This document shows, in pieces, positions 2,293 through 27,960 of a stretch of DNA of 64,000 nucleotides. Position 1 is the stretch's first letter, and the number at the start of each line of letters is the position of its first letter. Source of the DNA: a plasmid; sequence record NZ_CP067423.1. The stretch is one strand, 5' to 3'. A program made the position numbers and the translations under genes. Under the pieces are notes generated by a model that ran no database searches, was not told where the DNA came from, and worked only from the letters and a program-made list of their open reading frames with translations.

Positions 2293-2320
2293 GAACCGCC
2301 CTCCTGCCCGGCTGCTTTGG

Positions 2321-2950: not shown

Positions 2951-3012
2951 GACCCAATCCTTAACCCATTGAATTGCGGTCTCTTGAATCCCGTACGGCC
3001 GCGCACCACCAG

Positions 3013-3028: not shown

Positions 3029-3103
3029 GGGATCGACAGTCGTCGCCGTGATAGACAGGGGGGAGTGCCGAGGGGCCGTTGCCGCATTTATGGCTGAATT
3101 GCG

Positions 3104-5347: not shown

Positions 5348-5507
5348 GTGGAATTTCAGGAGTGACAACCGGAATGACTCCGGCCGTCCCCGCTCAGAGA
5401 GTAGAACACTGCCTTCGGTCAGCCGAATATCGACAATGCCGGTCCTATGCTGCTGTGCAAGCCCGTTGTAGCCGCGGCAACAATTGCCGTGATTATGGGC
5501 CCCTGGA

Positions 5508-5768
5508 CTAGAATGTGACCTTGGCAGTGACGGGCGTGTAGCCCCGTCCGACCCTACGGGCGAGCCAGGCCTCGAGCGCTTCGCCGGCTTCAGCGGCCGA
5601 CGCATAGAGGTCAAGGCGTTGTCGGCCGAGCGAGCCGATCCGCCCCCACGCGCGCATAAGCGCCGCATCACCGTACAGTGACGGTTCTATCGCGAGTACA
5701 TAAAACCGCGCAACGTTGCGAGCGCAATCGCGGCGTTGAAGGACAACTTGAAGCTTCGGCTCGACCAT
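5508..5768 (-). CDS. WGR-domain protein (86 aa)
   Basis: WGRIG motif with surrounding small all-domain architecture typical of stand-alone WGR proteins on plasmids. Confidence 0.65.
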   Translation of the reverse strand: MVEPKLQVVLQRRDCARNVARFYVLAIEPSLYGDAALMRAWGRIGSLGRQRLDLYASAAEAGEALEAWLARRVGRGYTPVTAKVTF

Positions 5769-6329
5769 GTCTGATTGTCATCGACTTCCGGTACCCACGT
5801 CCAATTCATTGGCTGAATCGTTTGGGCGTGAGGGATTCACGTCGGTGATAATTGCCTCTCTGACGGGAAAGACGATCGACCGGAGGGTTGTCTAGTTGCT
5901 TCCGTTTCCCGTCGGCCCATGGACTTGTGGCAGCCTGACAAACACGCGTTGGGCAATTTTGAGCCACCACGCTGGGCGCTGCATAGCCGGCTAAGAGTCA
6001 TCTGTTCATGGGTGAAGGTGAGTCGCCCCAAAGGAGCGGCGGTCACGCCCACTCACTCGGTTTGACGCCATCCACCACTGTGAAACTTCTCAGGGTGCTG
6101 CATGGACCGAGCCAGCGGCATGTGGCATTGAAGGTTCTCGCGGATTGACCAACCGCGGAGAAACTAAGCGATTGAAAAATCGATGGAAAATGTACGCGCC
6201 GACGCCGCGATTCCGGACTGTGAGGCTCCGCTGAGTGATCTTGTTGGCGTGGACCTGGGCATGTCGTTAAGGTTTCGTTAACCTAAAATCCCTTGCCAGA
6301 GAACGGGAATCGCTCATACTGGCGCCAGA

Positions 6330-7571
6330 TTGGCCGAAAGGTCGAATATGGCGCTATTTTCTCGTTTGGGGGACAAAGCGGAGATGGCATTTCTCCCAAG
6401 TTTTGAGTTTGACGACAAGATCCTTGCCCAGGGGGCCGAGATCTCGCGCAAGCTCGACCAATTGCGCGTCGAGAAGTTTCCGACCGAGGGGCAGAAGACC
6501 CTTCGGCGGTTCTCGATGGCCGAGGTCGCCCACTATCTTGGTATCAGTCCGAACAATCTGAAGCGCCTCCATCTTGAAAAGAAAGGTCCTGAGCCTTTCG
6601 TCGGTGCCGGCGGACGGCGCTTTTACGCGGCCGAGCAGATGACCGAGCTTCGGGACTATCTCGACAAGCACGGGCGATCGGATTCCAAGAAGTATGTGCC
6701 CTACCGCAAACCTGGCGAGAAGCTGCAGGTCATTGCGGTCGTCAACTTCAAGGGTGGATCGGGAAAGACCACCACCACGGCGCACCTCGCGCAGCATTTG
6801 GCGCTCACCGGTCACCGGGTCCTGACGGTGGATCTCGATCCGCAGGCTTCGCTTTCAGCCCTCCATGGCTTCCAGCCGGAGCTCGACAAGAACCCCTCGC
6901 TCTACGACGCGATCCGGTACGACAACCCCGCCCCGGCCGAAGATGTCATCCGCAAGACGAACTTCCCCTTGCTCGATATCATCCCGGCGAACCTGGAGCT
7001 GCAGGAATATGAGTACGAGACTCCGCTTGCCATGCAGTCTCCGTCTCAGGAAGGAAAGCGGTTCTTCACGAGGGTCGCCCGGGCGTTGGATTCGGTCAGT
7101 GAGCGCTACGACGTCGTGGTCGTCGATTGCCCTCCACAGCTCGGCTATCTGACGCTGTCGGCACTGTCGGCCGCCACCTCGGTTCTGATTACCGTCCACC
7201 CGCAGATGCTGGATCTGATGTCTATGAGTCAGTTTCTGCTGATGCTGGGCAATATCATGAAGTCCATCAAGAATGCTGGCGCGAAGGTCCAGCTGGACTG
7301 GCTGCGCTATCTCATCACCCGATACGAGCCCACGGACATTCCCCAGGCACAGATGGTCGGCTTCATGCAGTCGATGCTTGCCGAGGAAATTCTGAAAAGC
7401 CCAATGCTCAAATCCACGGCGATTTCTGACGCCGGCCTCACCAAGCAGACGCTCTATGAGGTCGAGCGATCGAACTTCAATCGCGATACCTATGATCGGG
7501 CGATCGACAGCATGGATGCCGTGAACTTCGAGATTCAGGGACTGATCCACCAGGCATGGGGGCGGTTGTGA
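6330..7571 (+). CDS. repA: RepA, ParA-family partitioning ATPase of the repABC cassette
   Basis: Deviant Walker A VVNFKGGSGKTTTTAHLA and a long N-terminal extension typical of repABC RepA. First gene of repA-repB-repC in the same orientation. Confidence 0.9.
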   Translation: MAERSNMALFSRLGDKAEMAFLPSFEFDDKILAQGAEISRKLDQLRVEKFPTEGQKTLRRFSMAEVAHYLGISPNNLKRLHLEKKGPEPFVGAGGRRFYAAEQMTELRDYLDKHGRSDSKKYVPYRKPGEKLQVIAVVNFKGGSGKTTTTAHLAQHLALTGHRVLTVDLDPQASLSALHGFQPELDKNPSLYDAIRYDNPAPAEDVIRKTNFPLLDIIPANLELQEYEYETPLAMQSPSQEGKRFFTRVARALDSVSERYDVVVVDCPPQLGYLTLSALSAATSVLITVHPQMLDLMSMSQFLLMLGNIMKSIKNAGAKVQLDWLRYLITRYEPTDIPQAQMVGFMQSMLAEEILKSPMLKSTAISDAGLTKQTLYEVERSNFNRDTYDRAIDSMDAVNFEIQGLIHQAWGRL

Positions 7572-7572
7572 T

Positions 7573-7588
7573 GTTGACTGCCGTCAAA
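7573..7588. promoter_or_regulatory. candidate parS-like centromere dyad (TTGACtgccGTCAA) in the repA-repB spacer
   Basis: Imperfect dyad GTTGACTGCCGTCAAAAC loosely matches the repABC parS consensus GTTNNCNGCNGNNAAC. Some repABC plasmids place parS between repA and repB. Confidence 0.3.
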
Positions 7589-7646
7589 ACCACCAAAAAA
7601 ACCCACGGTTTCAAGCGCATAAGCCGCTTAAGGGGGTGCTAGTCAA

Positions 7647-8657
7647 ATGGCGCGGAAAAATCCCTTTGCCAGCATCATGGACAACGGCGACGCTCCCGCC
7701 GAGCGCCCGGTCGCGCAAGACTACACCTTCAAGGGGGCATCACGCTCGCTCATAAGCTCGATCGACGAAATGGCGGCTCAGGCAGGCAAGCTGCTCGAGG
7801 GCGAGACGATAATCGAGGTTAACCCCGACCTGGTGGACCAATCTTTCGCCAACGACCGGCTCAACGTCGATCAGGAAGATTACGAGGCCGACTACGCTCA
7901 GGTGTTGGAGTCGATCCGTGGTTCCGGCCAGAACTCCCCGGCGCTCCTTCGCCCTCACCCGCAGCGGCCCGGCCGCTACATGCTGGTCTTCGGTCGCCTC
8001 CGCTGGCGCGCCGCAAAAGAGCTTGGTCTCAAGCTTCGCGCTGTCATCAAGGATATCTCCGAGCGCGATCATGTGATCGCCCAGGGACAGGAAAACAACG
8101 CGCGAGCGAACACGTCCTTCATCGAGAAAGCACTGTTTGCCGCCGACATCGTTGAGCGGAAATTCGACGAGGACAACGCCACAGCCCTCGCCGCAATCGG
8201 TGTCGATCGGCCGACGCTTTCAAAGATGCTCTCTGTCGCCTCGATGCCCAAGGAACTTCTCGAGGCGATCGGCCGCGCGAAGGCTGTCGGTCGTGATCGC
8301 TGGTATGAGCTCAAGCTCCTCCTCGACAAGCCGGGCAATCTCGACACTGCCCTGGCTCTGGCATTGAGTTCCGATTGGCATGGGATGCCAAGCGAAGCGC
8401 GGTTCGATGCGGTCGTCACGAAGCTGAAGGCATCCAAGCCGCGCCGCCGTGCCGCGCAGGCGCCATCCAAACGCAACTGGGCGCCGTCTGATGGGCGTAT
8501 CGCCGCGGAGATGGTGGCCAGTGGCAAGAAATTCACCATCGCCCTCAAGGCGAAGGGAACCGACGCAGCAGCGTTCGGTGACTACCTCTCGGAAAATCTC
8601 AGCGAGTTGTATGAGGCTTTCCGTCGGGAAAAACGAGCAACCACGAACGGAGATTGA
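7647..8657 (+). CDS. repB: RepB, ParB-family partitioning protein
   Basis: 336-aa product with ParB-like central region, between repA and repC. Confidence 0.9.
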   Translation: MARKNPFASIMDNGDAPAERPVAQDYTFKGASRSLISSIDEMAAQAGKLLEGETIIEVNPDLVDQSFANDRLNVDQEDYEADYAQVLESIRGSGQNSPALLRPHPQRPGRYMLVFGRLRWRAAKELGLKLRAVIKDISERDHVIAQGQENNARANTSFIEKALFAADIVERKFDEDNATALAAIGVDRPTLSKMLSVASMPKELLEAIGRAKAVGRDRWYELKLLLDKPGNLDTALALALSSDWHGMPSEARFDAVVTKLKASKPRRRAAQAPSKRNWAPSDGRIAAEMVASGKKFTIALKAKGTDAAAFGDYLSENLSELYEAFRREKRATTNGD

Positions 8658-8664
8658 GCGCAAA

Positions 8665-8745
8665 AGAAAAAGGCCCCCGAAACGGCAATTCCGGAAGACC
8701 TTCTCTTTAAGTTTGGCGACTGAGAGAATCCCACTTCCGCGAATC
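8665..8745 (-). ncRNA. predicted counter-transcribed antisense RNA (ctRNA) of repABC in the repB-repC spacer
   Basis: 166-bp repB-repC spacer. On the minus strand a GC hairpin (cggaattgccgtttcgggggcc) is followed by a T-run (tttttctttt), giving a rho-independent terminator pointing toward repB, as expected for the repABC ctRNA. Confidence 0.45.
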
Positions 8746-8823
8746 ATAGTCAAGACCATTCAGGTCGGTTTGAGCGCCGATTCGGCGAGCAGGTTTCTTT
8801 TGCCTAGCAATAGGTGAAGGACA

Positions 8824-10140
8824 ATGCAGACGCATACCCCAACGACGCCCTTTGGGCGGCGAACGATGTCACTTGGCATGATGGCAAGCCAGGCTGTGGC
8901 AAAATCGGCACCGGCTGGCGCCCAGGTCCAGAAATGGAAAGTGTTCCAGACGATCCGGGAAGCGCGCGAGCTGATCGGCGCTACGGACCGCGCACTCGCC
9001 ATTCTCAACGCGCTGCTCTCGTTTCATCCGGAAACGGAGCTCACAGGCGACGGCGAACTGATCGTCTGGCCGTCCAACGAGCAACTCATGGCCCGTGCGA
9101 ACGGAATGCCGGCGACGACGCTACGGCGCCACCTGGCCGTCCTGGTCGACTGCGGGCTGATCATCCGCAGAGATAGTCCGAACGGCAAGCGCTTCGCCCG
9201 CAAGGGCAGGGGAGGTCAAGTCGAACAGGCCTACGGGTTCGACCTGGCGCCGATCGTTGCCCGGGCCGGGGAATTCAAGGAGCTGGCGGACACCGTCCGG
9301 GCCGAGAAGAACGCCCTTCGGATCGCCAAGGAGCGTCTCACGCTCCTGCGCCGCGATATCGTCAAGCTCATCGAGACTGGCATCGAGGAGAACGTTCCGG
9401 GCAATTGGGGCAGGGTCTACCAGACCTATCAGGCCATCGTCTGCCGCTTGCCGCGCTCAGCGCCGAGGCAACTCATCGAGGATATCTGCTGCGATCTTCA
9501 CGGCCTCTACACGGAGATCCTCGAGGTATTGGAATCATTTGCAAAAACACAGAATCCGGACGCCAATGAGTCCCATTCTGGTCGCCACATACAGAATTCA
9601 AACCCAGACTCCATATTTGAATCTGAAGACCGCTCTCGAAATAAGAATGAAGCGGGCGGCAGCGCCGCGGAAACCGACAACGTACGGAGCTTGCCGAAGC
9701 GAGAATTGCCTTTGGGCATTGTGCTGGACGCCTGCCCCAACCTGCGAGAATTGACGCAAGGCGGGGAAATCCGTCACTGGCGCGACTTTCTGGCCGCGGC
9801 GGAACTGGCCCGGCCGATGCTGGCAATCAGTCCCAGCGCGTGGCGGGACGCCTGCGAGGTCATGGGCGAACAGCACGCGGCGATCACCCTTGCCGCGATC
9901 TACCAGCGATCAGACCAGATCAACAGCGCCGGCGGCTATCTGCGCAGCCTGACCGACAAGGCAAGGGACGGCAAATTCTCGACCTGGCCAATGATCATGG
10001 CACTGCTGCGCGCCAAGCTGGACGCCGACAAATCGGCGGAGAAAACCGGCCACGAACCGCGAAGCGGCGGTGAAAGCGGGGAAGGGCGGCTCGAAGTCTC
10101 GGAAGCCCTTCTGCGGTCGCTGAACAAGCCCAGATCGTGA
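8824..10140 (+). CDS. repC: RepC replication initiator
   Basis: 438-aa product beginning MQTHTPTTPFGRR, in canonical position after repB. Confidence 0.9.
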   Translation: MQTHTPTTPFGRRTMSLGMMASQAVAKSAPAGAQVQKWKVFQTIREARELIGATDRALAILNALLSFHPETELTGDGELIVWPSNEQLMARANGMPATTLRRHLAVLVDCGLIIRRDSPNGKRFARKGRGGQVEQAYGFDLAPIVARAGEFKELADTVRAEKNALRIAKERLTLLRRDIVKLIETGIEENVPGNWGRVYQTYQAIVCRLPRSAPRQLIEDICCDLHGLYTEILEVLESFAKTQNPDANESHSGRHIQNSNPDSIFESEDRSRNKNEAGGSAAETDNVRSLPKRELPLGIVLDACPNLRELTQGGEIRHWRDFLAAAELARPMLAISPSAWRDACEVMGEQHAAITLAAIYQRSDQINSAGGYLRSLTDKARDGKFSTWPMIMALLRAKLDADKSAEKTGHEPRSGGESGEGRLEVSEALLRSLNKPRS

Positions 10141-10384
10141 TGATTGATAGATTTGAATTCCGCGGGCGGCAACTCGGTCAGTCTCTGTCGTCGTCGATCA
10201 GACCGTCAAAAGTTTCGAGCAGTGCATCGATGATCGATTGGCCAAGGGCATTTGCAGCTTCGCCCATCCGGGCATCGTCTCCGCACCGCGCCGCAGAAGC
10301 GAGCTCCGAACCCTGCTCGGTCAGGATCGACTTGGTTCGCTCGATGGCCCATTGGGCGAAATCGTCGCGGCTGTTGACGGACGT

Positions 10385-12394: not shown

Positions 12395-13027
12395 TCAGTT
12401 GGAAGCGTGCTCACGCTCTTCTACCACGCGTTTCTCGTCTTCTGTTCCGTTAAGAGCTTCAAGCGCTCGATCGATATCCTCCAAGCGTTTTAGCAGTTTG
12501 ATGCGCTCCAGCTTAAGCTGATGACGTTGTGCTTCTAAATCAATAGGCTGCGGAGCACGGACGCGTCGTTTGAATTGCAGAATATCCTCTCGCCGCATCT
12601 CTGGCTGTATTATGCCTTCTTTCAGCGCTTGAACACGTTCCTCTGAAGTTAGAGTCGTAATTTGGTAACACGTCTCCGAAGCATTGGGCAGTAAGTTTAA
12701 CGGCAGTTCTTCAGCTTCGATAAACCGAGCTACACTCATCAGCTTATTAGCGGACTGGTGGCTAAATGGCAGGTCGGATGCTACCATCGCCATAAACTCG
12801 CCGTGCTGCAGCCTGTCCTTCGCGGCAAGTAGGTAGCGCCCGATGAGTAGAAAGCTTTCTTGACTTTCCGTCCAAGCACGTCGAATTTCCGCAGCAAATT
12901 CCTCGCGTGCGAGGAGTTTAGCTGGATCGCGTGGAGGTGTGAGACGTGGTGCCAGTATGCCAATTGGGGCGAGGATCTCTCCGGCGTCCTCAGTCGTCAT
13001 GATACGCGGCGTTTGTTTCCTAGCCAT
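12395..13027 (-). CDS. hypothetical protein, possible partition partner (ParB role) of the adjacent small ParA
   Basis: 210-aa ORF overlapping the parA stop by 8 bp in the same operon, with a C-terminal coiled-coil region. Assignment is by position only. Confidence 0.4.
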   Translation of the reverse strand: MARKQTPRIMTTEDAGEILAPIGILAPRLTPPRDPAKLLAREEFAAEIRRAWTESQESFLLIGRYLLAAKDRLQHGEFMAMVASDLPFSHQSANKLMSVARFIEAEELPLNLLPNASETCYQITTLTSEERVQALKEGIIQPEMRREDILQFKRRVRAPQPIDLEAQRHQLKLERIKLLKRLEDIDRALEALNGTEDEKRVVEEREHASN

Positions 13028-13652
13028 GGATCATAGCCTCTACCGCCTGGGCCAACTCGGCGAAATCGTTGCGAACTGCAGCATCGTCCAATGGCATCCC
13101 GAAGAACGAGTAGTTCTGATAAGCTGCGCGAAGCGGCACCTCAGCGCTGAGCAACGGCACTTTGAACGCAGCAAGTTGCTCGCGAGCGAACCCTGCGGCT
13201 TGAGTTCGCTTATTAACCTGCATCAGCACAGCAGCCGCTGGGATCATGATATTAGGCTTATATCGTTGTGCCTGCCGTTCTGCGGTGGTGACATGCTGAT
13301 ACGTCCGTGCTGCTTCGATAGCATCTTTCTGGTCAGGTCGGGCTGGAATTAGAACGGCGCTTGCTACCCCGATAGCGTAGACTAGTCCGCGCGCTAGTGC
13401 TCCGGCGACGTCAATAACAACCACCTCAGAACGCTGTTCAGCCTCAGACGCAGCATCGACGAGGTCATCTTCGTCTACGACAGTCCATGGAATGGGTGAT
13501 TTCGCTCCCTTGAGCCACTGACTCAAGTTGCGATTGGGATCGACATCCAGAACCTCTACGGATTTTCCCGTTCGGTGCCAATGATCTGCCAGACACAGTG
13601 TCAGAGTGGTTTTTCCTGGGCCACCCTTGGTGGAAGCAACCGTAATGATCAT
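13020..13652 (-). CDS. parA: small ParA/Soj-family partition ATPase (type Ib)
   Basis: N-terminal MIITVASTKGGPGKTT deviant Walker A in a 210-aa product. It diverges from the iteron origin region. Confidence 0.85.
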   Translation of the reverse strand: MIITVASTKGGPGKTTLTLCLADHWHRTGKSVEVLDVDPNRNLSQWLKGAKSPIPWTVVDEDDLVDAASEAEQRSEVVVIDVAGALARGLVYAIGVASAVLIPARPDQKDAIEAARTYQHVTTAERQAQRYKPNIMIPAAAVLMQVNKRTQAAGFAREQLAAFKVPLLSAEVPLRAAYQNYSFFGMPLDDAAVRNDFAELAQAVEAMIHG

Positions 13653-14211: not shown

Positions 14212-15144
14212 ATGCAGCCTGACCAGCTTGCCCTTCAGCTAGACAGCCCACTTATGGGCAAGGCAAAGAATGATCGCAATTTGATGGTTTACGCGTGGTT
14301 CGGCTTGAACCGTGAAAAGCAAACTGAGCTTCCGATCTACGACGATGGAAAAGTTCGCATCGAAGTTACCGGTACGAAGCATGGGATCGCTAATATCTGG
14401 GATGCTGAGCTGCTTATTTATCTAGCTTCGATCATTCAGGAACGTATCAACCTTGGTGTAGTACCTGAGCCATTGGTGAGTTTCGCTGCACATGATTTCT
14501 TCCGTATCACTGAGACGAAGCCGGGCGGCAGTTCCTATGACCGGCTTGAGGAAGCCTTGGCACGATTGCGAGGCACGCTGATCCGCACCAACATCGAGAC
14601 GGGAGGCGAAGGAGAGTCGGAAGGTTTCGGTTGGATCGACAGCTATAAGATCCAGTACCGTCGCGGCCGCGATGGCGAGAAGATCATGAAGGCCGTACAA
14701 GTCAGGATTTGCGATTGGCTATTCCGTGCCATCGTTAAGGATCGGCGCATGCTGACCTATGATCCACGATACTTCAAGTTAGCGCCGCTTGAGAAGCGGC
14801 TCTATGAAATCGCCCGAGCGCACTGCGGCAACCAAAATGGTTTTAAGATCAACCTGCTGAAGCTTCACCGCCGGATCGGTACGGCGATGGAGCCACGGTT
14901 CTTTAAGGCGCAACTGGTAAAGATGGCAAAGCGGAAAAACCCGCTACCCGAGTATGGCTTTATGCTGGTCGACCCACGCGTCAAGTTGTCGGTGGATAAA
15001 AAAGCGTTGCCGCCACCCGGCCGCACTCCGCTCAAATCATGGATGGTGTTTTTTTTCAGAACTGATCGCCTCTCGAGTATGCCTCCGTTTGCTACAGCGC
15101 CAGAGGTTGAGGACGACTTCCCTGTATCGGAACTGCCAAGCTAA
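14212..15144 (+). CDS. plasmid replication initiator protein (RPA / replication initiator protein A family-like)
   Basis: 310-aa ORF immediately downstream of the iterons. The motif GIANIWDAELLIYLASII resembles the conserved IWDADxLIW motif of alpha-proteobacterial iteron Rep proteins. Divergent from parA. Confidence 0.7.
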   Translation: MQPDQLALQLDSPLMGKAKNDRNLMVYAWFGLNREKQTELPIYDDGKVRIEVTGTKHGIANIWDAELLIYLASIIQERINLGVVPEPLVSFAAHDFFRITETKPGGSSYDRLEEALARLRGTLIRTNIETGGEGESEGFGWIDSYKIQYRRGRDGEKIMKAVQVRICDWLFRAIVKDRRMLTYDPRYFKLAPLEKRLYEIARAHCGNQNGFKINLLKLHRRIGTAMEPRFFKAQLVKMAKRKNPLPEYGFMLVDPRVKLSVDKKALPPPGRTPLKSWMVFFFRTDRLSSMPPFATAPEVEDDFPVSELPS

Positions 15145-15789
15145 TCGTGAGGGTGTACGGGAACGGTAATCAGCCGTATTCTGTATTACCAAATGTTTAC
15201 GCTGCTGAATCTTGAACAAACTAGCAACACGATCTGCCCCGCACTCGTGGTGTTTATACCGTAACAGGCATCACTGAGTATTCTCGTCGTCAGAAACACA
15301 ACTGATGCCAAAAGTCGGTCGGCTGAGGCCGCCAACGAGCGGCCGACCAGTTTCGTGACGTCGGACGTCAAGTAGCTTCGCAGGGACCCATCTGCAGCTC
15401 GGCTTCCGCTAGCTGGGGAATTGGCGATTTGCTCCGGGCGAAGATGGGTGGAAGCTGCTTGACGCCCACAGGCAGAAGACCCTCAAGCCCGTGTTCGCGT
15501 TCTCTGGGCAGACGCCTTGAATTTTTCTGGTTTTCGCGCCTTGTACCGGGCAGATTCCGGGCGTGTGTCTAGGAATTTTCCGGGCGTGCTGCGGCCTCGA
15601 TAACACTCAGAACGAGTTTGGGCGTTGATACGCCGAGCTTTTTCAGCAGCTTGGCCAGCTCCGAGCCGATCCGGGTGCGCTGAACAATAGCCCGGCTTTC
15701 CGTCCGATAGCGCACCGCCTTCAGGCAGTCGAGCGCATGGGCGATGCGCGCCCACGGCAGCGCGCAGCGGATCTCGGCGGCCTGCTGCA

Positions 15790-16260
15790 TCTGCAAGGCC
15801 AACACACAGCTTCACGTGCGCCTCGATCCGCCGCGCCGTCCAGTGGAACATCGGCCGCACTTCATGCTCGCTCTGCTTCATGCGGCGGAAGCAGGACTCA
15901 ATGATCCAAGCGCCTTTGTATCCCAGGGCTACGTTCTCGGACGACAGCGTATCGTCGTTGGTGATCACCACGAACTTGTCGCCGAACTTCTCAGCCGTCT
16001 TCACCTTGCCCGTATTCAGCTTTGGCCGTCTGCGTCAGTTGGTGCCGAGATAGCGGCCGTACCGGCGCGAGGCTATCAGCCGGCAGGCTGCCTTGGGGTG
16101 ATCGACATCCCACTCGTCGAGCAGCGTGATGACCACCTCGAGTTCGGCCAGGACCTGCTCGTGGTGCTGACGCTGGCTTTCGGCCTCTCGCGGGTTCATG
16201 CACAGCACGTAGCGCCGGCGCCGCTCGCCCTCCCGACGCGTTCGTGAGCTGAGCCGCCAT
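15790..16260 (-). pseudogene. fragmented DDE transposase (IS4/IS1634-like) remnants
   Basis: Minus-strand frames give ...RYVLCMNPREAESQRQHHEQVLAELE... and ...VVITNDDTLSSENVALGYKGAWIIESCFRRMKQ...FHWTARRIEAHVKLC (C-terminal Y..IE..FR..K region) in different frames. No intact ORF. Confidence 0.5.
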
Positions 16261-16290
16261 CATGCGGCGATCGGCTCGTCAGCGGTCGAG

Positions 16291-16758
16291 GTCAACAGGG
16301 TTCGTGGGGACCCGCGCGCACAAGCGCAGCGCGGAGCGTGGGCGGAACCCCGTTGACCCCCACGGCTCTGATATCCTAATAGCTCCCTGGTTTGATCCTT
16401 AAACCAGGGATGCCCTCCCGGCGAGGGATCCTAAAATCTCACTTCCTCATAACCGAATAACGGAAGCAGGTTGATCAGGGTAGACCGCCAGCCTCGTGGT
16501 TGGGGAAAGCGGGCCGTGTTAGGTGGGTTCGTCGACCTGACCGCAAGCCAGGATACCCCGCTCCACGTCACCTTGTCAGCCCGACGGCGTTCCTTTCTCA
16601 GGACTTTGACTGGAGCAAAGACAGTGCCCTCGTCAGGCCGGCATCTCCTCCGGTTGCTGGTGGCAGCCGGAGGGAAGCCAGGAGAATATTTGGTGGGACG
16701 GGGTCAACAGGATTCCGCCCACGCTCCGCTCTGCGCTTGTGCGCGCGGATTCCCGTGA
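16291..16758. repeat. ~470-bp element bounded by ~55-bp near-identical inverted repeats, hairpin-rich interior
   Basis: 16304-16360 (GGGGACCCGCGCGCACAAGCGCAGCGCGGAGCGTGGGCGGAACCCCGTTGACCCC) is ~90% identical to the reverse complement of 16703-16758. The left copy is itself palindromic. The interior has several stable stem-loops. Confidence 0.5.
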
Positions 16759-17061
16759 ACCTTAGCGCAAACAGTAGACGTCAGGCATGTTAGTACTGAT
16801 TAGCGATCGATGGTGATGTTGCTCAAGAGTCACACTAGCTGGGGCGAGGTCCATGCTGCATCTGATGATCATCGGAATTGCCGTGCTCGGCATGATCTGG
16901 AATGTGGACCTGGGCGCCCGGCCCTATGTCGACGTGGCAATGTGGCTTCTGTTCGCCGGGCTGATGTTTCACCTGGGTGACCGGTTCAACACCTGGCTGG
17001 ACCACTGGGCGGTCCGGCCCAGGTGGCGCCGGAACCGCCGCCGCGCAGCTGGACGGCCGGA

Positions 17062-17428: not shown

Positions 17429-18562
17429 TTACGTCTCCGGAAAAGGAATATCACTATTTATCTGAATTCGATAGATAGCGCCGGATCTCATCGTCAGTAC
17501 CGGCGGTCTCATTAATTCCCGGTTAACGTATTCACCGCCGACGCCTCGGATGCCCTGAGTGCCGACATTTACCGCGACACCGGCCGGCCCCTCGATCAAT
17601 CCACCCAAGGCGCCGACGAACGACAGCGCTCCCTCGATCAGGATGCCGGTGGCGATGCCGCTCCAGGGGTAGTCGCTCTCCGCCTCGACGCCGCTGGCGC
17701 CGTCCTGGCCGAGCGCCGGCGAACATGCCATCGGCATGATTCCACCCCCCAGCAGGTCGACCCGGGTGGCACACATCTGGACCCTCAGGTCGCCTCGGCT
17801 GACGCCGGTGGCGTTCAGCTCGGTCATGACGGTGCTGCCGGCGGGGATGGCCAGGCACTCCTCGACCTGACCGTTGCCCAGGAAAATCCGTCCAAAGGCG
17901 TCCTCGATGATGATGCCGCGCACCTGGCCGGGCAACTCGGTGCGAACCGGGTTCGGGTTCTGGATCACCAACTCCTCGCCCGCCTTCAGGATGCAGCCGG
18001 TCAGTTCGGGCTGCAGGCTGTGCGGGTGATAAAGGCCCTGGCCACTGCGACCACCGCCCCGAGTGTAGAAGTCAGACTTGGCGTTGCCGCCCTCGCCACC
18101 TGTCCCGGCTGCCACAGGTGTCGCTGCGACATCTCCGCTCCCCTGGGCCATGCTGCTACCGCCCAACAGCGGGTTCATCACGGCGCCCATGTGCTTGTTG
18201 TCGAACGCCAGAACCGACACCTTGAAGTTCCTGACCGGCTGCTTGCGTGGCACTTCGCTTCTCCGCTCCTGCCGGTGTCCGGGAGGCGGCGCTTGCTCGC
18301 CTGTTTCCGGTGGCGGTGTCTCGGCAACTTGCGGCCTGGGTTCGGGCGCCCGCGCGCTGATGGCCGCCGGCTCTAGACCCTTGGGCTCCTCGCGTTCCGA
18401 CTCGGTCGTGATCCCGGCCACGCCGTAGAGCATGGCGAGGACCGCAACGACGGAGGTTCCACCCAACAGCAGGGTCCGCTTGTTGAAGCGCCCGCTGTAT
18501 TCGCGGACAGGCTCCTCGATGCCATCCTCTCCGGGATGACGCTCCTTGTCGTAGCTTCTCAT
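17429..18562 (-). CDS. trbI: T4SS-2 VirB10/TrbI-like protein
   Basis: N-terminal TM (LLLGGTSVVAVLAMLYGVAG), Pro-rich linker (PEPRPQVAETPPPETGEQAPPP), and a C-terminal Gly-rich beta-barrel region. Position follows the trbG-like gene. Confidence 0.75.
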   Translation of the reverse strand: MRSYDKERHPGEDGIEEPVREYSGRFNKRTLLLGGTSVVAVLAMLYGVAGITTESEREEPKGLEPAAISARAPEPRPQVAETPPPETGEQAPPPGHRQERRSEVPRKQPVRNFKVSVLAFDNKHMGAVMNPLLGGSSMAQGSGDVAATPVAAGTGGEGGNAKSDFYTRGGGRSGQGLYHPHSLQPELTGCILKAGEELVIQNPNPVRTELPGQVRGIIIEDAFGRIFLGNGQVEECLAIPAGSTVMTELNATGVSRGDLRVQMCATRVDLLGGGIMPMACSPALGQDGASGVEAESDYPWSGIATGILIEGALSFVGALGGLIEGPAGVAVNVGTQGIRGVGGEYVNRELMRPPVLTMRSGAIYRIQINSDIPFPET

Positions 18563-19563
18563 CGTTCTCTCCGAACGGTCATGACGAGGTCACCGCGCAC
18601 GAACCGGACCTCTCCGGGCAGGCCGCGGATGACGTAGTGGCGAGAGGTGGGGTCGATCCAGAATGAGGGAGCCGATCCCCTGGGCAGGAACGGGACCGGC
18701 CGGCTGGATAGCCGGGCGGGCGGCAGGATGTAGGTATTGACGCCATCGTTGTAGGCCGACCACTCGCCGGGCAGGAATTCTGCAGGGCCGTGATAGACGT
18801 ACCGGGTATCCGAGACGGCGGTCGCGTCAGGCCTATGCACCGTAGCGGCTGTCACCCTCGGTTGATCGGACCCGTAGGTATGCTGGACGACCGGATGATA
18901 TGCTGCGTGGCACTTGCGGGGAGCGGCGTCCTCGGCCGGCTTACAGGACGGAACTACGAGATCGTAGAGGTACACCCTGCTGCCGGTAGCGATGGACAGC
19001 GATGTCCGCTCACCCTGTTTGTAGGCCTTGACGGTGACGATCAACCGGGCGCTGGCGGACTTCCTGTTGTTGGCCCGTTCCCGTTTGGCTCGCATGGACG
19101 TACCGTCGACGCCCCCGGCGGTCACCTCAACCATGAACCACTGCGGGTTTCCCAAGATAGCCTCCGGCGTGGCCTCGCCCGGCTCCAAGTAGAAGAGGGT
19201 CACATCGCTGTCGGTTTCCCCGTCGGCAGATGGGCCGTCCATGATAACCTGCTGTCGGACACCGTTCTGGAACGGGCAGGTCATGATTGATCCCTCGAAG
19301 CTGCAGTCCAGGGCGGTGCGCCGGGACCTCTTGACCATGGCCGCAGTCTTGGCGGCTGGCGACGTGAACTTCTTTTCCGGTTTGGCGGGCCCGGTCGCCA
19401 CACCACCAAAAGGCACGGGCACCTGCAGCGTGCCCGGCCCGGGAGGCTGAACCTCCTGGGCCTGGAGGTAGTCGTAAGTCAGTGACGGAGCATCACCCGA
19501 TGGACCGCCTGCGCAGCCCGCCAACACCACCCCCGCAACCGACATCAGCAGAAACTTACACAT
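18559..19563 (-). CDS. trbG: T4SS-2 VirB9/TrbG-like lipoprotein
   Basis: Lipoprotein signal MCKFLLMSVAGVVLAGC in a 334-aa product. Sits between the trbF-like and trbI-like genes and overlaps the trbI-like start by 4 bp. Confidence 0.7.
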   Translation of the reverse strand: MCKFLLMSVAGVVLAGCAGGPSGDAPSLTYDYLQAQEVQPPGPGTLQVPVPFGGVATGPAKPEKKFTSPAAKTAAMVKRSRRTALDCSFEGSIMTCPFQNGVRQQVIMDGPSADGETDSDVTLFYLEPGEATPEAILGNPQWFMVEVTAGGVDGTSMRAKRERANNRKSASARLIVTVKAYKQGERTSLSIATGSRVYLYDLVVPSCKPAEDAAPRKCHAAYHPVVQHTYGSDQPRVTAATVHRPDATAVSDTRYVYHGPAEFLPGEWSAYNDGVNTYILPPARLSSRPVPFLPRGSAPSFWIDPTSRHYVIRGLPGEVRFVRGDLVMTVRRER

Positions 19564-23544: not shown

Positions 23545-23825
23545 CACACCTCTCCTTTGTGCCGTATACAGGATATGAGAGATCCCATAATTGCCCGCCC
23601 CGCATAGCCCACCGCGATCAGCGCTCCACCGAGGCTCACCAGCAGCGTCAATGACCGCCACGGCTGGGGCAGGTCGGCGGTTAACCACCTGACCAGCGGC
23701 ACCCCTTCGGTCAGGATCAGGACCCCGATGCCGAGAAGGGCCAGGGAGCCGGCGACGCCGATGGCCAACCCGGGAAGCAGGTAAACCATGGACCGTTTCA
23801 GGATCTCGGCGGGATACCCGTTCAT
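23544..23825 (-). CDS. small two-TM membrane protein of unknown function between trbE-like and trbJ-like genes
   Basis: 93 aa with two hydrophobic helices (LLPGLAIGVAGSLALLGIGVLIL; LTLLVSLGGALIAVGYAG), translationally coupled on both sides. Confidence 0.4.
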   Translation of the reverse strand: MNGYPAEILKRSMVYLLPGLAIGVAGSLALLGIGVLILTEGVPLVRWLTADLPQPWRSLTLLVSLGGALIAVGYAGRAIMGSLISCIRHKGEV

Positions 23826-26275
23826 TCTGCGGCCCTCAGTATGGTTTCGGGTTCATCGCCCAGGAGCGGACCGACGTCGACGCCGTGCTCTGCCATCCAA
23901 CTGGTCAGGAAGTCGCCGCCCCGGCGCTCGACCTGGCGGGCGTGCTGGTAATGGTGATCGTCGGTCTGGAGCACCATGGCCGAGGCGATCGGGGAGCCGA
24001 GGTCGAAGGTCACCACCGCTTTCCCGACGCCGGGCCGGTGGACGAAGTATTCACCGGCCTGCGCCATGCCAGCGATCACCTCGGCATCGTGCTGGCTCAG
24101 TTTCAGCTCTCCCAGGACCTGCAGACCCTCGGTGGTGGTCACCGCGGTGTCCTGCACGTAGATTTGGGTCGGGCACGAATTGAGGATGATGTGCGAGATG
24201 TCCGACCTGGACAGGTCGAGGACCGACTGGGTGGCGAAGACAACCTGGGTCTTGAGCTTGCGGTATGTCCGGAGACCCCAGCCAAGCCCCTTCACGAACC
24301 CGCCCGCGACATAGGCACTGGCCTCGTCGAGCTGGAGCATCAGCGGCCGGCGCGAGCTGGACAGCCGCATGATGTGCCGCCACAGGTAGGAGATCAGGGC
24401 CGGCGCCGCCACGGCCTCGTCGTCGTCCGTGATGGCTGAAAGTTCAAAGTTGATCCAGTCGGCCTCGTAACTGCGATTGTCAACGGCATCGAAGATGTAG
24501 CCGAGCGGACCGTCGTGAGTGTAGATCCGCATCGCCTTGGCCGCGTCCTCCGACGGCACGTTCAGGCAGAACGTTGTCATGGTCCGGTCGTCCGGTGGCA
24601 TCCGCGCCATGATCCGGAGCGCAGCGTCGACTGCCTGGGAGATGTCGGAGTTGTCGGCCGCGGCGCCGATCTGCTGGCGGATGCGCGCCAGCGTCCAGGA
24701 ATGCGCCCAGGCTCTGTCGGTAGGCTTGTCGATCTGGCGGTAAGGCTGCACGCCGCAACCCTGCTCGCCGATGTTGAAGGTCACCCCACCAACCAGCTTG
24801 GCCGCGACATAGCCGGAGCGGCCGGACTCGACCCGCATGACACGACCACCGGGGACGGCGGTGATGTGCCCGAGGCCCAGGGCATTGAGACCTGATGTTT
24901 TGCCGCCGCCCGTGCCGCCGCACAGGAAGCAGTGCCGGGTGGCCCCGTCGATGTGCAGCGACAACGCGAACCGGCTGGTCGAGCTGGTCCGGCCATGGAG
25001 GAGGATCGGACTCTTGGTTGACCCTAGATCTCCGGCCCAGGCCTTGGTCAGCGGCGCGGTGACCGCGGCGGCCAGCAGGTTGACGCCGGGTCGCACGAAG
25101 TCGACGTCGGTCTTGCCGGGGATCGCCCCCAGGACGCAGTCGTGAGTCGTCAGGTCGTTGATCTCGACCCCGAACCCGTGGTCGAGCAGGAATTCCTCAA
25201 TCTTGCCGGCCTGCGTCTTCGCCTCGCCCCGGTCCTCGTGGTAGACCAGGACGTTGTCCGTGGTCTGGCACCGGAGCACGCCGCCCCGCTGCAACTCCAG
25301 CAGCATGGCGTCGGTTTCCTCCAGGGTGACGGTCGCAGCCTTGTTGTTCAGCGGGCTCAACGCATCCTTCTGGAACTGGCGCATCACCTGGAGCAGCATG
25401 CTTTCCTGGGTCAGCGCCGCCTTGCGGACCAGCCACTCCAGCTCACGCACGGACTCGGCCTTGGACTGGGTCCGGATACGCTTAACCCGACGGATGCGGT
25501 AGCCCAGCTCGGACAGGCCGTTGAACGTGTCGTTACCGAAGTCCAGGGCGCCGGCTTCTATGCTCCGCGGATAGGTGTTGATCTGGACGGACCGCACGTT
25601 GAGGCGGTTGTGCTCATGACCCAGCCACAGCGGGCGACCGCCGGTCAGGGGGCTGTCGATCAGCTGCGGCGCCAGGAACTCGTAAGGATCGATCGAGATC
25701 GGCCTGTCGTTGACGGAGATGGTCGACCGCAGGTACGTGGCTAGGTCATCGCCTTCCAGAACCTCCGCCCCCACGAAGCGCAGGAGTGCGGCCATCCGGT
25801 CCACCGACCGGACGTAGTCGTCGAACATCGGGCCGTAATCGCCCCGGGTCTCGCCCGGCTCCGGCAACAGCAGGGCATTACGCAGCCTCACCGCCAGCCC
25901 GGCCGGTGGATTGTGCCGTACGGAAACATAATGCCGGCTGCCGAAGTGAGTGCCGTCGCCATGCACCGCGGTCCGGTCGATACCGTAGAGGCGGGCCGCT
26001 CGGTTCTCCGTCGTCTGAACCTGGATACCAGGGAGCGGACCACGCCGCTCCTCGACCCAGATCCACTTTCCACCGCCCAGGGTCTGCAAGGCCACCGCGA
26101 ACCGGGCAGCATGGCGCAAACGCTGCTCATCGCTGGCCGTGGACAGGTCCGGTGGTGCCAGTGCCATGGCCATCAGCCAGCCGAACTGGCTGCACGCCAC
26201 GACGCGCGGCCGACCCGCATGCGGCAGCATGGTCAGCCAGGGCACCTCGTCGCGCAGGTAACGCTTCCTTGTCAT
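23822..26275 (-). CDS. trbE: T4SS-2 VirB4/TrbE-like ATPase
   Basis: Walker A CGGTGGGKTSGL and Walker B-like MLQLDEASAY in an ~817-aa product starting MTRKRYLRDEVPW. Follows the trbD-like gene with 1-bp overlap. Confidence 0.9.
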   Translation of the reverse strand: MTRKRYLRDEVPWLTMLPHAGRPRVVACSQFGWLMAMALAPPDLSTASDEQRLRHAARFAVALQTLGGGKWIWVEERRGPLPGIQVQTTENRAARLYGIDRTAVHGDGTHFGSRHYVSVRHNPPAGLAVRLRNALLLPEPGETRGDYGPMFDDYVRSVDRMAALLRFVGAEVLEGDDLATYLRSTISVNDRPISIDPYEFLAPQLIDSPLTGGRPLWLGHEHNRLNVRSVQINTYPRSIEAGALDFGNDTFNGLSELGYRIRRVKRIRTQSKAESVRELEWLVRKAALTQESMLLQVMRQFQKDALSPLNNKAATVTLEETDAMLLELQRGGVLRCQTTDNVLVYHEDRGEAKTQAGKIEEFLLDHGFGVEINDLTTHDCVLGAIPGKTDVDFVRPGVNLLAAAVTAPLTKAWAGDLGSTKSPILLHGRTSSTSRFALSLHIDGATRHCFLCGGTGGGKTSGLNALGLGHITAVPGGRVMRVESGRSGYVAAKLVGGVTFNIGEQGCGVQPYRQIDKPTDRAWAHSWTLARIRQQIGAAADNSDISQAVDAALRIMARMPPDDRTMTTFCLNVPSEDAAKAMRIYTHDGPLGYIFDAVDNRSYEADWINFELSAITDDDEAVAAPALISYLWRHIMRLSSSRRPLMLQLDEASAYVAGGFVKGLGWGLRTYRKLKTQVVFATQSVLDLSRSDISHIILNSCPTQIYVQDTAVTTTEGLQVLGELKLSQHDAEVIAGMAQAGEYFVHRPGVGKAVVTFDLGSPIASAMVLQTDDHHYQHARQVERRGGDFLTSWMAEHGVDVGPLLGDEPETILRAAE

Positions 26276-26276
26276 G

Positions 26277-26582
26277 TCAGGTCTCCAAGTCAGTGCGACG
26301 GCGCAGAGCGCGCACGGCAAAGCGCAAGAGGTTTTCCTGATAGAAGGGATTGTCCTTGGCCAGCATGACGCCGCCGTACCACATCGCGCCCGTGCCCAGG
26401 CACAGCACGACGATCACGGAGATGATGTTCCGGCCGCTGGGGGTGACGGCATACATCGTGAAAACCGTCCCGCAGATCCACCACAGGGCGATTACCAGGA
26501 CCGTCGAGAGTCGGCAGCTCCCCGGCATGTAAGGATGCTGTCCACTCCGTCGGATCTCGATGCCGTAATCCAGCGACGCCAT
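26277..26582 (-). CDS. trbD: T4SS-2 VirB3/TrbD-like protein
   Basis: 101 aa with two TMs (LSTVLVIALWWICGTVFTMYAV; IISVIVVLCLGTGAMWYGGVML), between the pilin and trbE-like genes. Confidence 0.65.
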   Translation of the reverse strand: MASLDYGIEIRRSGQHPYMPGSCRLSTVLVIALWWICGTVFTMYAVTPSGRNIISVIVVLCLGTGAMWYGGVMLAKDNPFYQENLLRFAVRALRRRTDLET

Positions 26583-26884
26583 CAGGCCCCGCCGAGGCCC
26601 AGGACGTATTCGGCCAGCAGCGGCACGCCACCGATGAAGGCGCCGATCGCGGCACCGACGATGGCCTTGCCGATGCCGCGGCCGGGATCTCCGACCATGG
26701 CACCGAGCAGGGCGCCGATGATGGCCAGGCCGACAATCATCAACCCGACGTTCTGGATCATGAAGTCCCAGATGTCCTGGGTGAACGTCTCGATGCCGTT
26801 GGCAGGGATCTGCGCCAGGGCAGGGCCGGCGAAAGCAGTCAGGCCCAGGACGATGGCGGCGGAAAGGGACTGGTTCGTCTTCAT
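26582..26884 (-). CDS. trbC: T4SS-2 VirB2/TrbC-like pilin precursor
   Basis: 100 aa: signal peptide MKTNQSLSAAIVLGLTAFAGPALA, then two hydrophobic segments with Gly-rich packing (GLMIVGLAIIGALLGAMVG...AIVGAAIGAFIGGV). Confidence 0.7.
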   Translation of the reverse strand: MKTNQSLSAAIVLGLTAFAGPALAQIPANGIETFTQDIWDFMIQNVGLMIVGLAIIGALLGAMVGDPGRGIGKAIVGAAIGAFIGGVPLLAEYVLGLGGA

Positions 26885-27960
26885 TGGATCAACTCCGAAG
26901 AAGAATTGCCGGATATATTATAGCCTGTATTGAGTTGATGGGGGACATCAACACGGGTCAGTCTGTAACCTGTGGTTTCATCGCAGCCACCGGGCCGGAA
27001 CACCCCGACGATGTCGCGGCCACCACCCGCCCGGCGCCTAATCCAAATGATGCGCTGCAGGGTCTTCATCAGCACGCGACGCTGCGGCACCGGGTCGATG
27101 CCGGCCTGCGCCACCATCTGCTCGATGCGGTCAAAGAAATCGGCCGGGTTGCTTGCGTGCAATGTCACCAACCCGCCGGTATGGCCGGTGTACTGGGCCA
27201 TGATGAAAACCCAGAGCACGCCATCGCGGGCTTCGCCGAGGATGATGCGGTCAGGCCGGCAGCGCAGCGCATCCTTCAGAAGATCCGCCATGTCCAGGCC
27301 GATGCTGGACAGGCGCAGCACGTCGGCCACGCACGGAAACTGCATCTCCGGCGTATCCTCCAGCGTGACCAGACGATCCGGCTGCACCGCCGGATGATTG
27401 GCCATGCTGGTCAGGAGACTGGTCTTGCCGCTGCCGGTCTCGCCGAACACCGCGACTGTCAGCTTGTTCGCCAAGGCCGCGGCGATGCAGTCCATGGTCG
27501 GCAGGCCCTGGCCGATCGTGTCGGTCTCCTCTTGGGCGAAGTGGACCTCGCGACCCGCGATCGGCGCCACGCCGTCGGCGACGTAGTCCCCAAAAGACCG
27601 GATGGTCCTGGGCAGGAAGCGGAGAACCACATAAGGGCCACCCACGGCTCGGGGCGGGATGCCGCCCTGGAACCGGATCTGCCCGGGAAGATCGGCGGCG
27701 AAGCTCAACCGTCCCCTGCCCTCGGCCACGATGCCGGCGAAGCGCGCGGCCAGGGTCACGATCTGCTGGCGCCGGTCAGCATCAAACTGGGTCTCAAGCC
27801 GGCGCTTGCCGACGGAGCCATAGACGAAGGCTCGACCATCCGGGTTGATGGCGATGTCCTCGGTACCGGCCTGCGCTGCCAGGGTCTGGATTTCGGCGCC
27901 CAGAGCATTGTTCAGCAGGCGTTCGGCCTCGCCCCGCTCACGATCGGAAAGCGGGATCAT
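26881..27960 (-). CDS. trbB: T4SS-2 VirB11/TrbB-like ATPase
   Basis: Walker A VFGETGSGKTSLL, then RIILGEARDG and VTLHASN motifs, in a 359-aa product. Confidence 0.9.
   Translation of the reverse strand: MIPLSDRERGEAERLLNNALGAEIQTLAAQAGTEDIAINPDGRAFVYGSVGKRRLETQFDADRRQQIVTLAARFAGIVAEGRGRLSFAADLPGQIRFQGGIPPRAVGGPYVVLRFLPRTIRSFGDYVADGVAPIAGREVHFAQEETDTIGQGLPTMDCIAAALANKLTVAVFGETGSGKTSLLTSMANHPAVQPDRLVTLEDTPEMQFPCVADVLRLSSIGLDMADLLKDALRCRPDRIILGEARDGVLWVFIMAQYTGHTGGLVTLHASNPADFFDRIEQMVAQAGIDPVPQRRVLMKTLQRIIWIRRRAGGGRDIVGVFRPGGCDETTGYRLTRVDVPHQLNTGYNISGNSSSELIQ

Follow-up and report, generated by a model that had tools for sequence, protein, structure and literature searches.

An intergenic block of about 470 bp, at positions 16291-16758 of a 64,000-nt stretch of the plasmid sequence NZ_CP067423.1 (the whole stretch is called the window below, and coordinates refer to it), raises the question of what a pair of inverted repeats enclosing several strong hairpins is for. 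A first-pass annotation, made from the sequence alone, described the block as one unit with terminal inverted repeats of ~55 nt around a hairpin-rich core and offered three options: a miniature inverted-repeat transposable element (MITE), a RIME-like intergenic mosaic element, or a cis-acting site or non-coding RNA of the adjacent replicon or transfer system. We found that the 470-bp feature is an inverted pair of one non-coding structured module, with one complete and one 5'-truncated copy, and that the structure of this module is under selection on one specific strand. We tentatively favour the reading that the module is a candidate for a new type of strand-specific single-strand initiation site, comparable to the single-strand origins (sso) and single-strand initiation signals (ssi) of other replicons.

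Two inverted copies of one module

The module measures about 190-250 nt and comprises four hairpins in the order P1, P2, linker, P3, and P4. Copy A (16251-16433, plus strand) is complete; it was matched by nhmmer at E = 4.5e-36 over positions 9-226 of a profile built from 25 modules, and its fold surpassed those of shuffled sequences with z = -3.5 as DNA and -4.1 as RNA. Sequence and fold placed P1 (GCCGC-catcat-GCGGC) at 16253-16268. The following hairpin, P2 (16290-16358), consists of a 14-bp outer stem, in which GGTCAACAGGGTTC (16290-16303) pairs with GAACCCCGTTGACC (16345-16358), around a structured 41-nt interior; P2 is the left "inverted repeat" of the first-pass annotation, and its outer stem is the self-complementarity that had been noticed there. 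Alignment identified an unpaired linker, J2/3 (16359-16381; CCCAC...GATATCCTaat), with TATCCT at 16372-16377. Downstream of the linker lie P3 (16382-16413; GCTCCCTGGTTTGA...TTAAACCAGGGA(T)GC), assigned from its fold and the block alignment table, and P4 (16416-16428; TCCC-GGCGA-GGGA), assigned from its fold and the covariation of its closing pair, all on the plus strand.

Copy B (about 16621-16761, minus strand; nhmmer E = 9e-14) converges with copy A tail to tail, with 187 nt between the two. Alignments placed its P4' at about 16626-16639, P3' at 16640-16679, the linker at 16680-16701, and the interior and 3' arm of P2 at 16702-16761. P1 and the 5' arm of P2 are absent, so that P2 is unable to form in this copy, which corresponds to the right "inverted repeat".

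The repeat that had drawn attention to the block is real. A repeat search returned arms at 16299-16387 and 16673-16761 (89 nt, 78% complementary); the aligned identity of the ~55-nt core was about 89%, against a claimed ~90%, and a 35-mer from this core occurred at two sites in the window (0 and 1 mismatches) as compared with none in 100 shuffles. The single unit with terminal repeats did not hold, as the "repeats" are the internal hairpin P2 of two inverted modules. The boundaries moved as well: instead of starting at 16291, the conserved sequence begins further left, at about 16214-16251, and the right arm, although present, is cut off at 16761/16762 with the 5' half of its stem gone. The hairpins ascribed to the core were also recovered, CCCTGGTTT...AAACCAGGG inside 16382-16413, CCCTCccggcGAGGG at 16413-16427, and CCTCCGG...CCGGAGG inside 16640-16679, but such hairpins are P3 and P4 of both copies, whereas the true centre (16434-16620; 187 nt, assigned to neither strand) folded no better than shuffles (z = +0.6). 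This central spacer was about 70% conserved in blastn searches, only in the same composite of plasmids pSR-1 and pSM-1. As had been supposed, no conserved open reading frame (ORF) was found in the interior; the pSR-1 and pSM-1 homologues carry a 10-nt indel there, and the indel relative to pSR-1 excludes a conserved interior ORF. The spacer also contains the sole sigma-70-like site within 15.1-17.1 kb (CTGACA-18 nt-TATCCT; 16550-16579, minus strand), which points towards copy A. The stretch is kept in pSR-1 and pSM-1 (CTGACA...CATCCT), and a single match is at chance level (0.4 expected).

Immediately upstream of copy A, a subfamily-specific 5' extension (…CCCGACGCGTTCGTGAG…; 16214-16250, plus strand) matched L001 and L002 on the opposite strand by blastn (83-85% over 41 nt). 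The same extension was found in the outer flank of B-type copies in pSR-1 and pSM-1, and in pTT6-4. A third copy, C (15321-15488, plus strand), lies 0.9 kb upstream of the pair and was matched by the 25-module profile at positions 4-171 of 228 (E = 1e-29). It retains P1, P2, and the linker only (DNA fold z = -2.1), P3 and P4 having been lost where a fragment of an IS1634-family transposase begins (~15489-16213, minus strand; NCBIfam NF033559, E = 7e-19, profile positions 353-417 of 483, ORF 15483-16004). This insertion sequence (IS) fragment, which divides copies C and A, contains the middle and C-terminal part of the transposase only, is frameshifted, and has approximate ends; searches against Pfam gave no match for it. 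It has no sequence in common with the module and stands outside the module family. Copy C lies 177 nt downstream of the gene for an RPA-type replication initiator (14212-15144, plus strand), and the AT-rich interval between them (15145-15320) is a possible origin.

Conserved structure and folding strand

About 30 diverged copies of the module were recovered from the Skermanella plasmids pSR-1, pSR-5, pSR-7, pSM-1, pTT6-4, and pTT6-5 and from soil-metagenome contigs. The metagenome search used a degenerate pattern drawn from the linker, P3, and P4, with TTGAY imposed by the pattern; it returned 32 contigs, about 25 of which were true members, the remainder being chance matches in coding sequences. 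Further copies came from the nhmmer profile, namely three in pTT6-4, one in pSR-5, and one additional copy in pSM-1.

We then aligned 25 distinct copies in blocks. Sequence anchors delimited the P2 and P4 blocks, which were left unfitted; the arms of P3 followed the fold of each individual sequence, which makes P3 structure-fitted. Standard pairs occupied 92.9% of the 966 cells of this block alignment, as compared with 66.4 ± 1.1% in shuffles (0/500), and the covariation score was 0.68 versus 0.18 in shuffles. When the 3' partners were slid by 1-3 columns, pairing fell to 39-53%. The unfitted outer helix of P2 alone had 92.3% of its cells paired, with both sides changed in 11 of its 16 pairs. 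RNAalifold, applied to two MAFFT alignments, recovered P1, P2 (as three nested helices), and P4, with compensatory changes in 17/32 and 18/43 pairs, respectively.

The individual elements varied accordingly in sequence and length. P1 covaries across the family (for example, GGCCGCC, GGCATCC, GCGGCC, and GGCCATC), and the 13-15-bp outer stem of P2 is represented by variants such as GGTCAACAGGGTTC, GCATCAAGCGGCTTC, and GTCAAGCGTTCC in different copies, with complementarity retained. P3 is closed by GGC/GCC and has stems of 10 to 20 bp (dG -14 to -41 kcal/mol), the sequences of which are widely divergent yet complementary. The closing pair of P4 is T-A, G-C, or C-G, and in copies found without the search pattern P4 reads TCCT-GGCGA-AGGA. 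The linker consists of CCCACA, 5-9 variable nt, A-Y-C-C-T, and exactly 3 nt before the GGC at the base of P3; copies that had been retrieved without the search pattern contained A-Y-C-C-T as well. Inspection by eye detected no consistent complementarity for long-range pairing between the P1-P2 spacer and the linker, and no match to a sigma-54 or extracytoplasmic-function (ECF) promoter in the linker. The structure of the module is under selection.

To assign the folding strand, counts were restricted to helices, as minimum free energies and G·U counts of whole modules in sense and antisense orientation were confounded by C-rich linkers and spurious long-range pairs. In the P2 outer stem and P3, the strand reading from P1 to P4 showed 18 G·T wobbles versus 3 A·C mismatches, whereas its complement showed 8 G·T and 9 A·C. 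The P2 outer stem was more stable on the sense strand in 21 of the 25 copies. One specific strand, that from P1 to P4, is selected to fold, and such strand-specific folding rules out both a purely double-stranded protein-binding repeat and an antisense RNA.

Distribution and genomic context

Copies outside the window differ in extent. The homologues in pSR-1 and pSM-1 span the whole 470-bp element at about 74% identity, while pTT6-5 and pSR-7 have the left half only, adjoining parA/parG-type partition genes, and pTT6-4 holds the copy-B subtype alone, co-oriented with its type IV secretion system (T4SS) operon as in the window. Among the 72,556 plasmids of PLSDB, only Skermanella records were retrieved, even with typical metagenomic members as queries. 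A scan of genome contigs with the hairpin pattern GTCAACAGNNTTY...GAANNCYGTTGAC gave 14 unrelated matches, for instance in Paenibacillus, and none in Skermanella, and a scan of viral contigs gave no match. No Rfam family was matched at the gathering threshold across the whole window, and at E < 1 the 14-19-kb region and six metagenomic members gave chance matches only (PyrR210 and miRNA-precursor hairpins). Neither the motif sequences nor Skermanella plasmids led to relevant papers in a literature search, and the module family appears to be undescribed.

The backbones that carry the module are unrelated: an RPA-type initiator and repABC with a T4SS in the window, ParA/ParG plasmids, a Rep_1 rolling-circle plasmid, and a plasmid with a GPA-type Rep and TraA. 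Their sizes span 3-10-kb circular plasmids and large conjugative plasmids. The host range, as judged from the records retrieved, looks narrow. Copies counted as complete within one replicon lie on one strand (window copies A and C, plus; two in pTT6-4, minus; copy A of pSM-1 and L055, plus). Other arrangements were also observed. Two inverted copies in pTT6-4 (L020, 25180-25374, minus; L003, 4997-5190, plus) bracket a 20-kb T4SS cluster with their P1 ends inward, and a third (L021, 23445-23630) is convergent with parA and a small gene. In the locus L041, a partial inverted copy (168-235, minus; P1, spacer, and the start of P2) stands head to head with a full module (297-512, plus) about 60 nt away, a geometry unlike the tail-to-tail pair of the window. 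Four 35-71-kb Skermanella plasmids, pTT6-5, pSR-7, pSR-5, and pTT6-4 (sequences L018, L019, L054, and L021, respectively), all carry the module, share an unusual gene set of HNH endonuclease, RTX-type calcium-binding protein, HGGxSTG-domain proteins, and ParA/ParG, and were typed as non-mobilizable by MOB-suite.

Pfam and record annotation showed that the neighbours of the module are diverse, including a GNAT acetyltransferase, HNH endonuclease, pentapeptide, rhomboid, HIRAN, DUF3102, ParG, and RTX proteins; a YoeB-like toxin and XRE-like helix-turn-helix (HTH) proteins were identified solely by visual inspection of translations. The gene downstream of the module is usually convergent. No recombinase or transposase was found to recur near module copies.

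L034, a complete metagenomic circle of 4,257 bp with a 55-nt terminal overlap, encodes a Rep_1 rolling-circle initiator and a MobV-like relaxase, and its module lies between the mob stop codon and the region upstream of rep, all three on one strand. L038, also a complete metagenomic circle (9,756 bp; 55-nt terminal overlap), encodes a GPA-type Rep and a MobA/MobL-TraA relaxase on the same strand. Homologues of the L034 Rep (36-41% identity) occur on other 3-4-kb circular contigs. In the circular Rep_1 plasmids L056 and L060, a co-oriented P2-like hairpin lies about 250 nt upstream of rep, with weak nhmmer matches (E = 2e-4 and 3e-5, respectively); a similar hairpin upstream of rep in L057 was recognised by eye only, and L059, a contig with a homologue of the L034 Rep, had no P2-like hairpin. 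T-runs are located directly upstream of P2 in L060 and L056, with a terminator-like hairpin there seen by eye in L060 only. Because these T-runs already precede P2, the upstream gene seemingly does not need the hairpin for termination. In L056, L057, and L060, an extra outer stem containing TAGCG(A/G), reminiscent of TAGCGT in CS-6 of ssoA, encloses the P2-only hairpin. In L056 and L060, the hairpin is followed after 60-110 nt by GTCTTGCCAG, which might be nicked by Rep. At a comparable distance L034 carries GTCTTGTCGG; L057 showed no clear counterpart.

Gene assignments in the window were based on Pfam and NCBIfam. The block lies where the first-pass annotation had put it, between the IS1634-family fragment and the VirB10/TrbI end of the T4SS operon. 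A ParA gene (13020-13652, minus strand) and the RPA-type initiator gene lie to the left. On the right, the minus-strand operon encodes VirB10/TrbI as its final large gene (17429-18562), VirB9 (18559-19563), a VirB4-like protein (23822-26320), VirB11 (26881-27960), a coupling protein (28375-30186), and an RlxS-like relaxase of 285 aa (30227-31084), which matches positions 71-243 of the 654-aa RlxS model and is thus short or truncated. The relaxase ORF heads the operon, and the 1.1 kb upstream of it (31085-32226) contains CGCAATCCTGCGCC, a possible nick-like motif. Further upstream, a 682-aa ORF (32227-34275, minus strand) has a YhgA/Rpn-like putative transposase domain in its C-terminal half only. 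A 1109-aa ORF (50166-53495, minus strand) with DUF7146 and Toprim domains encodes a possible plasmid primase, which would bear on the priming of transferred DNA.

The closest sequenced relatives of the module-bearing part of the window are Skermanella plasmids. Three Aminobacter plasmids (NZ_CP114192.1, NZ_CP060200.1, and NZ_CP062114.1) match positions 1-10380, which include repABC, Fic, and trbB, at 100.0% identity, and the sequence to the right of 10380 is Skermanella-like, with 87-98% identity to Skermanella plasmids. The abrupt switch at 10380 suggests a mosaic plasmid or a chimeric assembly.

Candidate functions and comparison with known systems

We regard an sso/ssi-type initiation site as the most probable function of the module, although we give it somewhat less than an even chance. 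It is favoured because a strand-specific, structure-selected, non-coding module occurs on unrelated replicons of a narrow host group, because of its position in L034, and because copies lie beside initiator and T4SS genes. Unrelated backbones combined with a narrow host range would be the expected signature of host-dependent, exchangeable sso cassettes. In pMV158, ssoA lies between mob and rep, a position matched by the module of L034. Besides a conserved one-strand structure in a non-coding region, we found the structure on the rep-sense strand upstream of rep in L034 (full module) and in L056 and L060 (weak P2-like matches), a small sample in which the double-strand origins are unmapped. Single-strand origins are defined by orientation-specific activity, conserve structure over sequence, often contain several stem-loops, and also occur on conjugative elements (PMC4595007).

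Such a site would act while its carrier strand is single-stranded, that is, during rolling-circle replication, conjugative entry, or at an opened origin, and a host enzyme would start an RNA primer for complementary-strand synthesis at the module. Inverted copies would prime both strands, like ssiA and ssiB in the oriV of RSF1010. Frpo/ssi elements are folded promoters of single-stranded DNA (ssDNA) (PMC11541004). For the module, a speculative promoter mimic can be drawn: TTGAC in the duplex base of P2 would represent a -35-like element, the unpaired A-Y-C-C-T of the linker, fixed 3 nt before P3, a pre-melted -10, and the 3' arm of P3 the template, on the model of the f1/M13 minus-strand origin, ssoA, and F Frpo. 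This "fork-junction mimic" would constitute a new class of ssDNA promoter or priming element, common to unrelated plasmids of one soil-bacterial clade, which would serve complementary-strand synthesis and possibly early expression after conjugation or rolling-circle replication; we consider it possible but doubtful.

Several observations weigh against a single-strand initiation site. The -35/-10 mimicry is weak, in that the spacer is 13-15 nt and only the A and T of the "-10" are invariant, and TTGAY was imposed by the pattern used to search the metagenomes. Sequence similarity to known ssoA, ssoT, ssoU, ssoW, or Frpo elements is absent. The ssoA motifs RS_B and CS-6 (TAGCGT/A) were not seen in the full-module alignment, TAGCG(A/G) being found only beside the P2-only hairpins of L056, L057, and L060. 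In L038, the module lies on the strand opposite to rep and traA and fits only by assuming which strand transfers, and the same-strand pattern of complete copies is based on three replicons only. The G·T/G·U bias identifies the strand only and fits RNA as well as ssDNA. Moreover, the preceding ORF usually has the orientation of the module, with a stop codon 0-30 nt from P1 in many loci, and a pyrimidine-rich or T-rich tract follows the GC hairpin at the module's end; these features would fit a transcribed 3' untranslated region or terminator equally.

These features lead to the main rival, a structured RNA that represents the transcribed 3' end of the upstream gene or a small RNA (sRNA) derived from it, which we judge rather unlikely. 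P3, P4, and the pyrimidine tail would then terminate or stabilise the transcript, and a binding site or an anti-Shine-Dalgarno site would be provided by the linker or the CUUUCUUCCUU tail. Besides the co-orientation with the upstream ORF in most loci, which in pSR-7 goes as far as P1 beginning directly after the stop codon of the HNH endonuclease gene, this explanation would account for the usually convergent downstream gene and for the CTTTCTTCCTT-like tracts that follow P4 in most metagenomic copies; covariation and G·U bias suit RNA as much as ssDNA, and the RNA fold of copy A (z = -4.1) agrees with it. Against it, no conserved promoter-like sequence was seen upstream of P1 in the family alignment and a promoter check, and no Rfam family was matched. 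P4 has just 4-5 bp, and the window copy lacks a T-tract and was not predicted to be a terminator. In small rolling-circle plasmids, P2-only versions occur by themselves ahead of rep and are immediately preceded by T-runs. For several copies the upstream gene is divergent or absent; copy A of the window, L020, and L054 adjoin an opposite-strand IS fragment. Nor is there an obvious reason for an sRNA on such varied backbones and in inverted pairs.

A non-autonomous mobile or recombination element (MITE-, REP/REPIN-, or attC-like), the hairpins of which would be read by a transposase, an HUH enzyme, or a recombinase, is quite improbable. It would explain the spread among plasmids and the inverted pairs, which occur in the window, in pSR-1 and pSM-1, and in L041, as well as the inverted copies flanking the 20-kb T4SS cluster of pTT6-4. 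The module is multi-copy, found in many unrelated contexts and typically between convergent genes, often with IS elements nearby, and some neighbours resemble cassette cargo (GNAT, pentapeptide, and, by eye, the YoeB-like toxin and XRE-like HTH proteins). The 3' arm of P2 reads CTTGAY, and CTTG-like sites are cleaved by HUH enzymes of the Rep_1 and IS91 types. However, the copies are only 65-80% identical and carry compensatory changes, which implies long-term selection on structure rather than recent bursts. Their conserved ends lack IS-like termini, and no terminal sequence shared with an IS was found. No transposase or integrase recurs near the copies, long contigs hold one copy or one pair without arrays, and no pair of empty and filled sites was seen; target-site duplications were not definable given the fuzzy 3' boundary and the truncation of copy B, and no systematic search for them was made.

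Two specific forms of this explanation are poorly supported. The MITE option had taken as terminal repeats what are the internal P2 hairpins of two copies; the neighbouring IS1634 fragment is unrelated, no matching transposase end was found, the plasmid and metagenomic copies are not near-identical and show compensatory stem changes, and single and P2-only modules stand alone. Integron attC sites are characterised by RYYYAAC...GTTRRRY cores, co-oriented cassette arrays, and a nearby integrase. In most copies of the module, the AAC...GTT core is replaced by AAG...CTT at the base of P2, and there are no arrays, the downstream genes are convergent, and no integrase was found.

An origin of transfer (oriT), with P2 or P3 as its inverted repeat and a nick site in the A-Y-C-C-T linker or after P3 (TGCC-TCCCC), is very unlikely. 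The window copy lies beside the T4SS operon, copies in pTT6-4 flank a T4SS cluster, and relaxase-less plasmids could use the module in trans. The linker reads ATATCCTG in pSR-1 and TATCCT in the window and pTT6-5, which may be compared with the nick sites of RP4 and T-DNA borders (ATCCTG) and of RSF1010 (GCGCCCTCCC). The G of ATCCTG is not conserved in the alignment, and GCGCCCT is absent from it. Whereas oriTs are relaxase-specific, the module occurs with RlxS/MOBP-like (window), MobV-like (L034), or MobA/MobL-TraA (L038) relaxases or with none. In the window, the module and the relaxase gene are 13 kb apart, at opposite ends of the operon, and three copies within 1.5 kb would be odd. An oriT of the MOBP/MOBQ type is poorly supported on these grounds, the resemblance to AYCCT being partial only.

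Non-functional debris, either a decayed IS terminus or a chance palindrome, is barely credible, since the family is conserved, structure-selected, and present on many plasmids with intact copies in many replicons, and since the IS1634 fragment that the block adjoins is unrelated to a module widespread without it, even if copies B and C are truncated. The remaining probability falls to functions outside those listed here.

The checks proposed by the first-pass annotation point the same way. On related plasmids the element proved multi-copy and conserved, which contradicts a decayed single-copy IS terminus; copy A folded beyond shuffles, and Rfam held no matching family. The observation was confirmed and its interpretation partly supported: among the three options, a cis-acting site or non-coding RNA comes closest, as a cis-acting structured element, and the MITE is poorly supported.

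The conversion of ssDNA to duplex DNA is, to our knowledge, well worked out for a few Firmicute plasmids, F, and filamentous phages and almost unexplored in Alphaproteobacteria. With its clear covariation, its assigned folding strand, and its invariant motifs in unpaired regions, the module is a candidate site that can be tested directly. If the fork-junction reading is true, it would represent the first sso/ssi family defined by covariation in Alphaproteobacteria; if the module acts as RNA instead, it would be a new structured RNA of plasmids, about 200 nt long and missing from Rfam. Either way, it accounts for a recurring unannotated intergenic block in Skermanella plasmids and indicates that two copies of a putatively functional hairpin module can pass for "MITE-like inverted repeats".

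Among known systems, MITEs and the RIME, ERIC, REP, and REPIN repeats share with the module a small size, a palindromic and non-coding sequence, and multiple intergenic copies, which often separate convergent genes and sometimes form inverted pairs. In contrast to these, the module has old, divergent copies that carry compensatory changes, no IS-matching terminal inverted repeats were detected, and it is known so far from plasmids only. With ssiA and ssiB of the IncQ plasmid RSF1010, which are hairpins of about 40 nt read by the plasmid's own RepB' primase, it shares the arrangement of two opposite-strand hairpin signals within a few hundred bp near an initiator gene; copies A and B of the window, with copy C adjoining the RPA gene, are the parallel. 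It differs from them in that no RepB'-like primase was identified beside the module, no sequence similarity exists, and copy B of the window is truncated.

The likeness to F Frpo/ssi and to the f1/M13 minus-strand origin lies in a folded strand that could offer promoter-like elements to host RNA polymerase (PMC11541004). In the module, TTGAC lies in a duplex stem, and the "-10-like" pentamer (A...T) keeps a constant distance of 3 nt to the following helix. Frpo carries both hexamers in one long imperfect hairpin with a normal spacer, whereas the "-10" of the module would be unpaired and the spacer is 13-15 nt. Unlike Frpo and the f1 origin, to which it has no BLAST-level similarity, the module is not positioned ahead of leading-region genes, and its downstream gene is usually convergent.

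The module differs from the ssos of rolling-circle replicons (ssoA of pMV158, pLS1, and pE194; ssoT of pBAA1 and pTA1060; sso1 of ICEBs1), all of which belong to Firmicutes, in its occurrence in Alphaproteobacteria (Azospirillaceae), its four helices with an unpaired CCCACA...AYCCT linker, and its inverted pairs on large theta-type plasmids. Like them, it is non-coding, about 150-300 nt long, and built of stem-loops on one strand, and its L034 copy, in the orientation of rep, occupies the interval from mob to the region upstream of rep. Further traits in common with ssos are the conservation of structure over sequence and the presence on unrelated replicons of a narrow host group, including conjugative plasmids (PMC4595007).

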